The notes under the pieces are model-generated. The model did not search any database, was not told where the DNA came from, and was given only the letters and a program-made list of their open reading frames with translations. This document shows positions 47,159 through 47,800 of a stretch of DNA of 64,000 nt, piece by piece. Origin of the DNA: Escherichia phage SHEFM2K; sequence record PQ390715.1. One strand, given 5' to 3'. Position 1 is the stretch's first letter. Each line of letters opens with the position of its first letter. A program made the translations under genes and the position numbers.

Positions 47159-47800
47159 TCAATAAAAAACTGGGTCTTCTTCAGTAATTGGTATTTCTCT
47201 ACGCACATCACACGAAAGAGGATCAGTAATGAATACATTCCCATCTTTATCCATCATCACATTACTTGAATGAATGTCTGGTACAAAACGCCCGTGAAAC
47301 TCTTTCATGATGTTAGCAGCGACCGTCGCAATAGCAATCTCTTCAGAATTTCCACGCATATCATTCACTGAAGTAGCGTACTGACCAGCATGTGCATAAG
47401 AATATAAATCTCCAATTTTAGTACTAACAAAGTCATCATAATTATTTTTTTGTTTAATTATAGGATAGTACTTGTCCATCTCATACCATCCAAAGTTTCC
47501 TTGTTCGTTGGCACTGTAGATCACTGGAAGAAACTTGGTTCCTGCGTTTTCAATGCAGTACTTTGCATAAGCACGAAAACCATCCCAGCGTGAAGTGGTT
47601 ACTTTAAATGCACGCCCAGGATAGTTTTTATGTTCAACTACTACAGAGTACATCCCCATACCAAGCAAAGTAAGTCCAGCAGCTTTAACTTGTGGAAAGA
47701 TTACGCGTTCAGCATAAGGAATATCAAACTCCATCGCACAACGAGTTTTTGATGGACGCAAAATGTCAATTAAAGTTTTGAATATTTCTTGCTTAGTCAT
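47159..47800 (-). CDS. Protein kinase-like protein (213 aa)
   Basis: ORF track trimmed to ATG with GAGGA SD; G-loop/Lys-like LGMGMYSVVVEH..AFKV, catalytic-loop-like PDIHSSNVMMD, DFG-like ITDP. Confidence 0.5.
   Translation of the reverse strand: MTKQEIFKTLIDILRPSKTRCAMEFDIPYAERVIFPQVKAAGLTLLGMGMYSVVVEHKNYPGRAFKVTTSRWDGFRAYAKYCIENAGTKFLPVIYSANEQGNFGWYEMDKYYPIIKQKNNYDDFVSTKIGDLYSYAHAGQYATSVNDMRGNSEEIAIATVAANIMKEFHGRFVPDIHSSNVMMDKDGNVFITDPLSCDVRREIPITEEDPVFY

Follow-up and report, generated by a model that had tools for sequence, protein, structure and literature searches.

The closest described system for one of the three protein-kinase-like genes of Escherichia phage SHEFM2K reported here is T7K, the gp0.7 protein kinase of phage T7. 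Residues 1 to 242 of T7K can be purified alone and yield in vivo about 31% of the wild-type phosphopeptides, with an earlier plateau, G76F is a catalytically dead mutant, and S216 is an inhibitory autophosphorylation site whose Ser is reported to be conserved in all T7K variants (PMC13645617). In that work, Bartolec et al. (Nature 2026, PMC13645617) recognised T7K homologues at E<1e-10 with kinase-domain hidden Markov models (HMMs) derived from PHROG 2828, named "Escherichia phage G17" among the jumbophage homologues, and described these homologues as having "lost the SO domain" (SO, shut-off), with the Val of the DPV motif less conserved. The genome paper of phage Sharanji (PMC11895373) lists WNN14432.1 as a T7 kinase homologue and WNN14351.1 as "another protein kinase, which function is unknown". 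Here, we analyse a 64,000-nucleotide (nt) stretch of SHEFM2K (sequence record PQ390715.1; hereafter the window), in which one gene encodes a T7K homologue and two encode members of PHROG 4301. The shorter of these two, with 123 amino acids (aa), is an example of a large, undescribed, ultra-minimal kinase-like family and is the part worth following up.

A canonical kinase domain comprises about 260 aa, and in cellular kinases helix F anchors both hydrophobic spines. Proteins with a reduced kinase fold that has no canonical activation loop include RIO, Bud32/PRPK and Kdo/LPS kinases and Legionella Lpg2603; they measure about 200 to 280 aa and retain a helical C-lobe past the DFG Asp. Our literature search found no paper on phage mini-kinases (as we call the 123-aa type) or on truncated kinase-like phage proteins.

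The initial annotation, made by reading the sequence, had picked out three kinase-like open reading frames (ORFs), and all were recovered on the minus strand at the coordinates in Table 1, with every motif it had quoted; the HMMs of the three families detected no fourth kinase-like ORF among the 381 ORFs of the window. Profile searches gave PHROG matches for each protein (E values of 3e-98 and 9e-17 for the T7K type, 7e-44 and 3e-42 for the other two), the Foldseek matches listed for the two modelled proteins (123 and 213 aa) were all kinases, aminoglycoside phosphotransferases included, and the ATP-binding Lys, the catalytic-loop Asp/Asn and the Mg-binding Asp are kept among homologues. With the PHROG, Foldseek and PDB profile matches in hand, the motifs cannot be put down to chance, and the assignment of all three genes to the kinase fold is well supported. 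Two of the three had been said to stop soon after the DFG-like motif; the early stop stands, and the count has to be raised, since all three do so, with 1 (123 aa), 19 (213 aa, counted from D-P) and 22 (194 aa) residues past the DFG-position motif. The lack of a normal C-lobe was also seen: none of the three has a canonical activation segment or helices F to I, and in the secondary structure of the 123-aa and 213-aa models no helix follows the DFG-position motif.

We consider it likely that the three genes encode divergent members of the protein-kinase-like superfamily in a phage-typical minimal architecture, with the roles proposed below. Each protein keeps an ATP-binding N-lobe (Gly-rich loop, Lys and helix-C Glu), the catalytic-loop Asp and Asn and the Mg-binding Asp at the DFG position, and lacks the activation segment and helices F to I, with which cellular kinases bind peptide substrates.

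Table 1. Kinase-like genes, their predicted motifs and neighbouring features in the 64,000-nt window
Feature	Coordinates	Strand	Detail
194-aa eukaryotic-type kinase core (PHROG 4301)	50..634	minus	phrog_4301, E 2.9e-42; end 22 residues past DYG
G-x-G-S-S-R-x-V loop and ATP-binding Lys (G33, G35, R38, K50), 194-aa kinase	485..538	minus	translates to GAGSSRIVFALNDRLVIK
Catalytic loop (D152..N157) and D170-Y-G172, 194-aa kinase	119..181	minus	translates to DIRKQNIGQDRNGLIKVLDYG
123-aa mini-kinase: N-lobe, one main helix, catalytic loop, DYG, stop	43229..43600	minus	phrog_4301, E 6.7e-44
G-x-T-R-x-V loop and ATP-binding Lys (G7, R10, K21), mini-kinase	43538..43582	minus	translates to GATRTVILIGEYAIK
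Catalytic loop D103-A-K105-P-E-N108 and D120-Y-G122, mini-kinase	43235..43294	minus	translates to DAKPENFGYLNGKLVKLDYG
Codon of D103, mini-kinase	43292-43294	minus	
Codon of N108, mini-kinase	43277-43279	minus	
89-aa ORF directly downstream of mini-kinase	42958..43227	minus	phrog_8563, separate family
denV (T4 endonuclease V, pyrimidine-dimer glycosylase) homologue, two genes downstream of mini-kinase	42368-42802	minus	
T7K (T7 gp0.7)-family protein kinase domain, 213 aa, without shut-off/DNA-binding domain	47159..47800	minus	PHROG, tblastn, model
Gly-rich loop to ATP-binding Lys (G47, G49, K66), T7K-like protein	47603..47662	minus	translates to GMGMYSVVVEHKNYPGRAFK
Catalytic loop and DFG-equivalent DPL (D175, H177, N180, D193-P194-L195), S196 next	47216..47278	minus	translates to DIHSSNVMMDKDGNVFITDPL
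Hairpin terminator, stem with -35-like TTGACT, 18 nt upstream of TATGAT; directly upstream of T7K-like gene	47837..47860	minus	sequence
Terminator cassette copies	6406-6429, 40193-40216, 41914-41937, 42839-42862, 47837-47860, 48922-48945, 50541-50564, 53966-53989	minus	

The gene at 47159-47800 is, as read from profiles and alignment, a complete T7K-type kinase domain, not a shortened one, and is already known. Its 213-aa product matched phrog_15752 ("protein kinase; inhibitor of host transcription...") at E 2.6e-98 and phrog_2828 (the T7 gp0.7 family) at E 9.3e-17 over residues 49 to 212; the second value lies below the published E<1e-10 (PMC13645617), the model scanned here being that of the whole PHROG 2828 family and not the kinase-domain subset. 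A tblastn search returned 724 phage records, mostly gp0.7 of Autographiviridae, the majority from Klebsiella, Yersinia and Escherichia podophages at 25 to 32% identity; local identity to gp0.7 of T7, T3 and Klebsiella podophages was 27 to 32%. The gene is annotated in G17 as "putative protein kinase, PHA00451" and is the same gene as that of WNN14432.1 in Sharanji. Our Pfam scan gave no Pkinase match for this protein; the precomputed accession PF27024.1 is attached to 27 of 27 database homologues, so that the T7K-type kinase domain is probably now covered by this recent Pfam family.

The likeness to T7K (gp0.7, PHROG 2828) and its homologue JSS1_004 extends over the kinase-domain alignment and the catalytic residues, with I-T-D-P in place of DFG. 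The protein contains the motifs GMGMYSVVVEH..RAFK and, further on, DIHSSNVMMDKDGNVFITDPL; in alignment with T7 gp0.7, G47 and G49 correspond to T7 G74 and G76, K66 to K93, D175-I-H-S-S-N180 to D195-M-H-S-G-N200 and I-T-D193-P194 to I-T-D213-P214. It differs from T7K in being only about 21% identical (41 of 195 aligned positions), in having DPL where T7 has DPV, in its carrier genome (a myovirus of about 350 kb versus a T7-like podovirus), and in that nothing aligns to the C-terminal shut-off/DNA-binding domain (T7 residues 243 to 359). Since loss of the SO domain is also reported for the jumbophage homologues (PMC13645617), this domain marks the Autographiviridae architecture and not the kinase family. 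The AlphaFold2 model of the protein (predicted local distance difference test [pLDDT] 93, predicted template modelling score [pTM] 0.89) begins with three helices, followed by a five-stranded N-lobe with helix C and an additional hairpin; past a pair of helices come the catalytic loop, the strand with DPL and a short tail, and helices F to I are absent. Foldseek against the PDB gave 246 matches at E<1e-3; those listed, 50 in number, are all protein kinases or aminoglycoside phosphotransferases. Translation starts at 47800 (MTKQEIF), with GAGGA 8 nt upstream; the homologues all begin with MTK, and the alternative ATG at 47833 sits at the foot of the terminator hairpin listed in Table 1.

Homology, fold, the conserved residues, the length shared across the family and the lack of a recurrent neighbour are results of the analysis; for catalytic activity, substrates, expression timing and any anti-defence role of the three proteins, we infer function from sequence. 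The 47159-47800 product would be a stand-alone T7K-type Ser/Thr/Tyr protein kinase domain that, by homology, most likely phosphorylates a broad range of host proteins in the course of infection, possibly phage proteins as well, and it may blunt host defence systems. As it has no DNA-binding shut-off domain, it should lack the bias towards nucleic-acid-binding targets that this domain confers. Ser196, which aligns with T7 S216, could turn the kinase off through autophosphorylation. At this column, 17 of 19 aligned metagenomic jumbophage-type homologues have Gly or Ala (DPLGGD, DPLAND), and the Ser is kept in the window's protein and in one further homologue (P0053). Of the two roles first suggested for the kinase-like genes, host-protein phosphorylation stands as a reasonable reading for the T7K homologue; a decoy function is disfavoured by the invariant catalytic residues. 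The gene in itself offers nothing new, being a published jumbophage T7K homologue whose study would extend known biology, and the value of the locus sits in the two PHROG 4301 genes, above all the 123-aa one.

The mini-kinase ends with DAKPENFGYLNGKLVKLDYG, a single further residue (D) and the stop codon. Pfam and NCBIfam gave no match for it. By tblastn, full-length relatives of about 120 aa are present in 119 phage records from many lineages, among them T4-like Dhakavirus, Aeromonas and Erwinia jumbo phages, Pseudomonas OBP and Nipunavirus siphophages; three of these records carry a Ser/Thr or STE-family kinase label. Among 15 close homologues, each of which stops one residue past D-Y-G, the residues G7, T9, R10, V12, K21, E41, D103, K105, N108, D120 and G122 are invariant. 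The family profile was searched exhaustively against 1.84 billion cluster representatives (50% identity clusters) and matched 1,213 clusters at E<=1e-3, 642 of them at E<=1e-10; alignment and length statistics were taken from the best 160 of the 1,213 representatives. Their median length is 123 aa, and in 132 of the 160 no more than three residues follow DxG; where a member is longer, as happens occasionally, the added part is an unrelated extension with no kinase C-lobe. At the aligned positions, K21 (158/158), E41 (160/160), D120 (155/155), G7 (156/156) and R10 (156/156) do not vary. One repetitive protein of 1,073 aa (P0082) was rejected as a spurious match of the representative search.

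The initial annotation had called the short genes truncated. In the sense of damage or shortening this did not survive: the 213-aa protein spans the T7K kinase domain (T7 residues 1 to 242, active alone), and most representatives of the 123-aa type (132 of 160) end about where the window's protein ends, so the short length is the native architecture of the family and not decay. That the short genes are decaying fragments of full-length kinases, as their size relative to the canonical domain might suggest, is refuted by family-wide conservation and retains next to no probability, given a length of about 120 aa across 1,213 clusters, invariant catalytic residues, homologues of constant length at 38 to 65% identity for both the 194-aa and the 213-aa protein, and compact, high-confidence models of the 123-aa and 213-aa proteins.

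The AlphaFold2 model of the 123-aa protein (pLDDT 91, pTM 0.80) shows an N-lobe, helix C, a hinge without helix D and one long helix equivalent to helix E, followed by the catalytic loop, two short strands and DYG. The Foldseek matches listed from the PDB are all kinases (probability 0.90 to 1.00, query-normalised template modelling score 0.41 to 0.59), led by the atypical Legionella kinase Lpg2603 (the best match, E 5e-4), TTK/MPS1, CDK2, WbdD and p70S6K; the model superposes on TTK, CDK2 and S6K. In BFVD, its relatives are phage proteins of about 117 to 273 aa (Aeromonas PS1, Ralstonia RP12, RaK2, CBB and PaMx11), of which those of RaK2 and CBB are relatives of the 194-aa gene, and giant-virus kinases of 160 to 183 aa match as well. 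As in PF00069 kinases, the VAIK Lys, the helix-C Glu, D-x-K-x-x-N and D-[FY]-G are all colinear in the 123-aa family. Unlike them, the 123-aa and 194-aa proteins stop at DFG or shortly past it and so are devoid of an activation segment, an APE motif and helices F to I, and in place of GxGxxG their Gly-rich loop has the form G-x-[ST]-R-x-V, with an invariant Arg. The phage mini-kinases also depart from the atypical kinases (RIO, Bud32, Kdo and Lpg2603) in having nothing past DFG.

PHROG 4301, labelled "unknown function" and with members mostly annotated as "hypothetical" or "uncharacterized protein", holds both the 123-aa and the 194-aa protein. We see no difference in kind between the two and the PHROG 4301 members and short kinase-like viral proteins of BFVD; the window's proteins are the family itself. 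The 123-aa and 194-aa families share the G-x-[ST]-R-x-V loop and a helix-C N-x-x-E motif, and within the window the mini-kinase family HMM finds the 194-aa protein at E 1.3e-5. The two genes would represent the long (194 aa) and the ultra-short (123 aa) members of PHROG 4301.

The assignment of the 194-aa protein as a kinase comes from sequence profiles. Pfam Pkinase matched it at 17.6 bits (E 0.0026), under the 31.7-bit gathering threshold of PF00069. A single-sequence search of the PDB gave weak matches, those listed being nearly all to protein kinases, with the catalytic loop and DFG as the aligned part; with the family profile of 13 homologues, MKK4 (E 1.5e-4) and MKK7 (E 5e-4) were matched, nearly all matches being MAP2Ks, and the alignment ran from the G-loop to past DFG. 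In this the family resembles the STE-group MAP2Ks. G33, G35, S36, R38, V40, K50, E64, D152, D170 and G172 are invariant in the 13 homologues and N157 is at least 90% conserved, so that K50, E64, D152, N157 and D170 of the PF00069 pattern are kept and the catalytic-loop Lys is not. Of the 59 phage records with homologues, those listed are nearly all jumbo phages of about 340 to 385 kb and include RaK2, K64-1, CBB, XbC2 and fHe-Yen9-04; a few of the records carry the label protein kinase. The protein is 99% identical to Sharanji WNN14351.1, and the gene has thus already been noted as a kinase (PMC11895373). In the sister phage vB_Ec-M-J (locus L045), it lies at 16690-17274, inside an annotated 21.5-kb direct terminal repeat, and several further sister-phage records have two matching places for it; a gene in the direct terminal repeat would occur twice per packaged genome, near the genome end.

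The residues kept by such short proteins bear on whether they would catalyse phosphotransfer. The mini-kinase catalytic loop has two covarying forms, DxKxxN (83 representatives, the window's included) and ExKxxS (41), mixed forms being rare, as expected for a constrained active site. The short proteins could instead be non-catalytic modules that bind ATP or another nucleotide, i.e., pseudokinases or decoys that bind a host protein or sequester nucleotide: the elements that stabilise an active kinase, helix F and the remainder of the C-lobe, are missing, the exposed helix-E surface would, judging from the architecture, favour partner binding, and no Pfam Pkinase match passes. We think this improbable, however. 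Pseudokinases typically lose the residues needed only for catalysis, and those residues (loop Asp/Glu, Lys and Asn/Ser, and the DFG Asp) are kept, in covarying form, in hundreds of diverged clusters; moreover, the T7K kinase domain, the C-terminal part of which is comparably reduced, is highly active. Conservation of the catalysis-only residues in both PHROG 4301 proteins argues for active ATP-dependent phosphotransferases.

The 89-aa ORF downstream of the mini-kinase had been described as overlapping it and as a possible partner or split C-terminal part. No overlap exists, its ATG lying 1 nt past the TAA of the kinase gene, the last codons of which (GGAGAT) supply a Shine-Dalgarno-like GGAG. 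A split kinase, in which the mini-kinase is the N-terminal half and the 89-aa product gives the C-lobe in trans or after a frameshift, would agree with this spacing, as the 1-nt gap and the GGAG within kinase codons suggest translational coupling. It is nevertheless largely refuted by distribution and, in our view, very improbable. The ORF belongs to a separate family, PHROG 8563, of narrow distribution, its homologues being confined to Asteriusvirus apart from weak (34%-identical) matches in Alcyoneusvirus, the K64-1-type phages. The two genes do not co-occur: no mini-kinase was found within 2.5 kb of the 89-aa homologue in K64-1, and the 89-aa ORF is absent beside the mini-kinases of the other phage loci searched. 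On reading, its sequence has no APE-like or other C-lobe motif, and the 132 of 160 representatives that end within three residues of DxG do so in unrelated genomic contexts.

Genomic context was sampled from 94 IMG/VR loci and three annotated phage regions; 77 loci had a callable mini-kinase ORF and, dereplicated at 70% identity, formed 51 groups. When 767 neighbours were clustered by BLAST, no family was shared by more than 3 of the 51 groups, and no Pfam family was seen more than two times among the 150 nearest neighbours, denV and Dam methylase reaching two and RNA ligase and RecA one each. In its surroundings the mini-kinase thus behaves like an accessory gene that stands on its own. Among individual arrangements, it stands directly upstream of denV in Nipunavirus phages (PaMx25 group) and directly upstream of rnlB (RNA ligase 2) in the T4-like Dhakavirus JS10 (locus L003, 1977-2345). 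In T4 (locus L041, 2651-2929), gene 24.2 fills the slot held by the mini-kinase in JS10; gp24.2 was considered as a mini-kinase homologue in the same slot and rejected, as the two have no similarity, and the slot upstream of rnlB looks like an exchangeable accessory-gene position. In three IMG/VR loci (L018 to L020; L018 1-8011), the genes clustered with a mini-kinase homologue encode an RNA ligase (PHA02142 OB-fold plus RNA_ligase), a phosphatase of the HAD "Swiss Army Knife RNA repair" type, a gp30.3-like protein, NADAR and an R2K ATP-grasp protein. A scan of nine ORFs of the L018 cluster recognised no P-loop polynucleotide kinase. This arrangement hints at a nucleic-acid-repair role of the mini-kinase in that lineage, not in general.

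These neighbourhoods bear on a further alternative, which we regard as rather unlikely, namely that the 123-aa protein, and perhaps the 194-aa one, is a kinase for a non-protein substrate (a 5'-OH nucleic-acid end, a nucleotide, a signalling molecule, a lipid or a sugar), in which case the missing peptide-binding lobe would be irrelevant. It would fit a 123-aa model that has no activation segment or P+1 loop, the adjacency to RNA ligase 2 in JS10 and to denV (direct in Nipunavirus, two genes away in the window), the company of RNA-repair-like genes in the L018 to L020 loci, and the presence, among the Foldseek matches, of kinases such as WbdD that share the fold and act on small molecules or glycans. 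Set against this, no neighbour Pfam family recurs among the 150 neighbours of the 51 groups beyond the two occurrences noted, so that adjacency to repair genes (rnlB, denV and the L018 cluster) is anecdotal and suggestive at most; a terminator cassette stands between the mini-kinase operon and denV in the window; and the D-x-K-x-x-N loop and the closest structural matches (TTK, CDK2 and S6K) are protein-kinase-like.

Several results weigh against the reading of all three genes as divergent kinases with the proposed roles. None of the three proteins reaches the gathering threshold of Pfam Pkinase (PF00069), and 0 of 114 mini-kinase family members had a Pkinase match at E<=0.01. Searched against the PDB, the mini-kinase family profile gave non-significant matches (E 0.3 to 0.9) to TTK, so that its link to kinases rests on predicted structure, PHROG co-membership and motif colinearity. 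The mini-kinase and 194-aa family alignments were weakly related by hhalign (probability 12%, E 0.0025); the three comparisons among the family alignments gave 12%, 4% and 1.5%, and pairwise BLAST among the window's three proteins showed likeness at motif level only. In the 194-aa family, the second catalytic-loop (Lys) position varies among R, S, N, H and T. The 123-aa protein has no helix F, so its stand-alone catalytic competence is in question. Promoter-like sites in the region number 22, versus a shuffled expectation of 26.8, and early expression is therefore only suggested. For the jumbophage T7K homologues, function and promiscuity are stated to "remain to be elucidated" (PMC13645617).

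With these points set beside the conserved residues and the models, we still favour divergent kinases of minimal architecture for all three genes. Both PHROG 4301 proteins would act alone, with no conserved phage-encoded partner. Their open active site, with no peptide-binding lobe, would point to little discrimination between substrates, to a substrate other than a peptide, or to a host protein that completes the fold. More tentatively, and as a possibility we think doubtful, the proteins of about 120 residues of the 43229-43600 type may be self-sufficient active phosphotransferases with unselective or non-protein targets during infection, forming, alongside T7K, an undescribed branch of more than 1,200 clusters of phage enzymes for manipulating the host or countering its defences; if so, they would be the smallest protein-kinase-fold enzymes known. 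The family is very large and phage-wide, and it keeps all protein-kinase catalytic residues while dropping everything past DFG. If active, the 123-aa protein would reveal the smallest catalytic unit of the kinase fold, show helix F and the activation segment to be dispensable for phosphotransfer, and add a second widespread phage kinase class to the host-takeover and anti-defence repertoire. That a single phage has three such predicted enzymes suggests that infection draws on phosphorylation in several layers, without redundancy.

The 3-kb stretch around the T7K-like gene is about 99% identical to the Asteriusvirus jumbo phages UB, SP27, JP4, G17, Sharanji and PBECO4, the genomes of which measure about 350 to 385 kb, and the window accordingly belongs to an Asteriusvirus jumbo phage; the annotation of G17 shows a long series of small minus-strand genes with terminators in between. 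The gene is flanked by two paralogues on the minus strand (46688-47101 and 47870-48289) that encode proteins of 137 and 139 aa with signal-peptide-like N-termini and 39% identity to each other (E 3e-32). The 46688-47101 copy is apparently missing from G17-type genomes: their matches to the 3-kb query fall into two segments that add up to only 86% of it, and G17 has no gene there.

The hairpin directly upstream of the T7K-like gene is one copy of a repeated terminator cassette, GGTTGACTTCGGTCAGCC followed by a T-run, the stem of which holds the -35-like TTGACT. Eight copies lie on the minus strand (Table 1), versus 0 expected by shuffling, and a -10-like TATGAT or TATAAT was seen about 18 nt downstream of TTGACT at both copies checked. 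The promoter scan of 47837-47860 gave TTGACT-18-TATGAT with an upstream TG and 10 of 12 matches (sigma-70-like), which is compatible with early transcription of the T7K-like gene by host RNA polymerase. The cassette appears to close one transcription unit and open the next, e.g., upstream of the T7K-like gene and upstream of denV.

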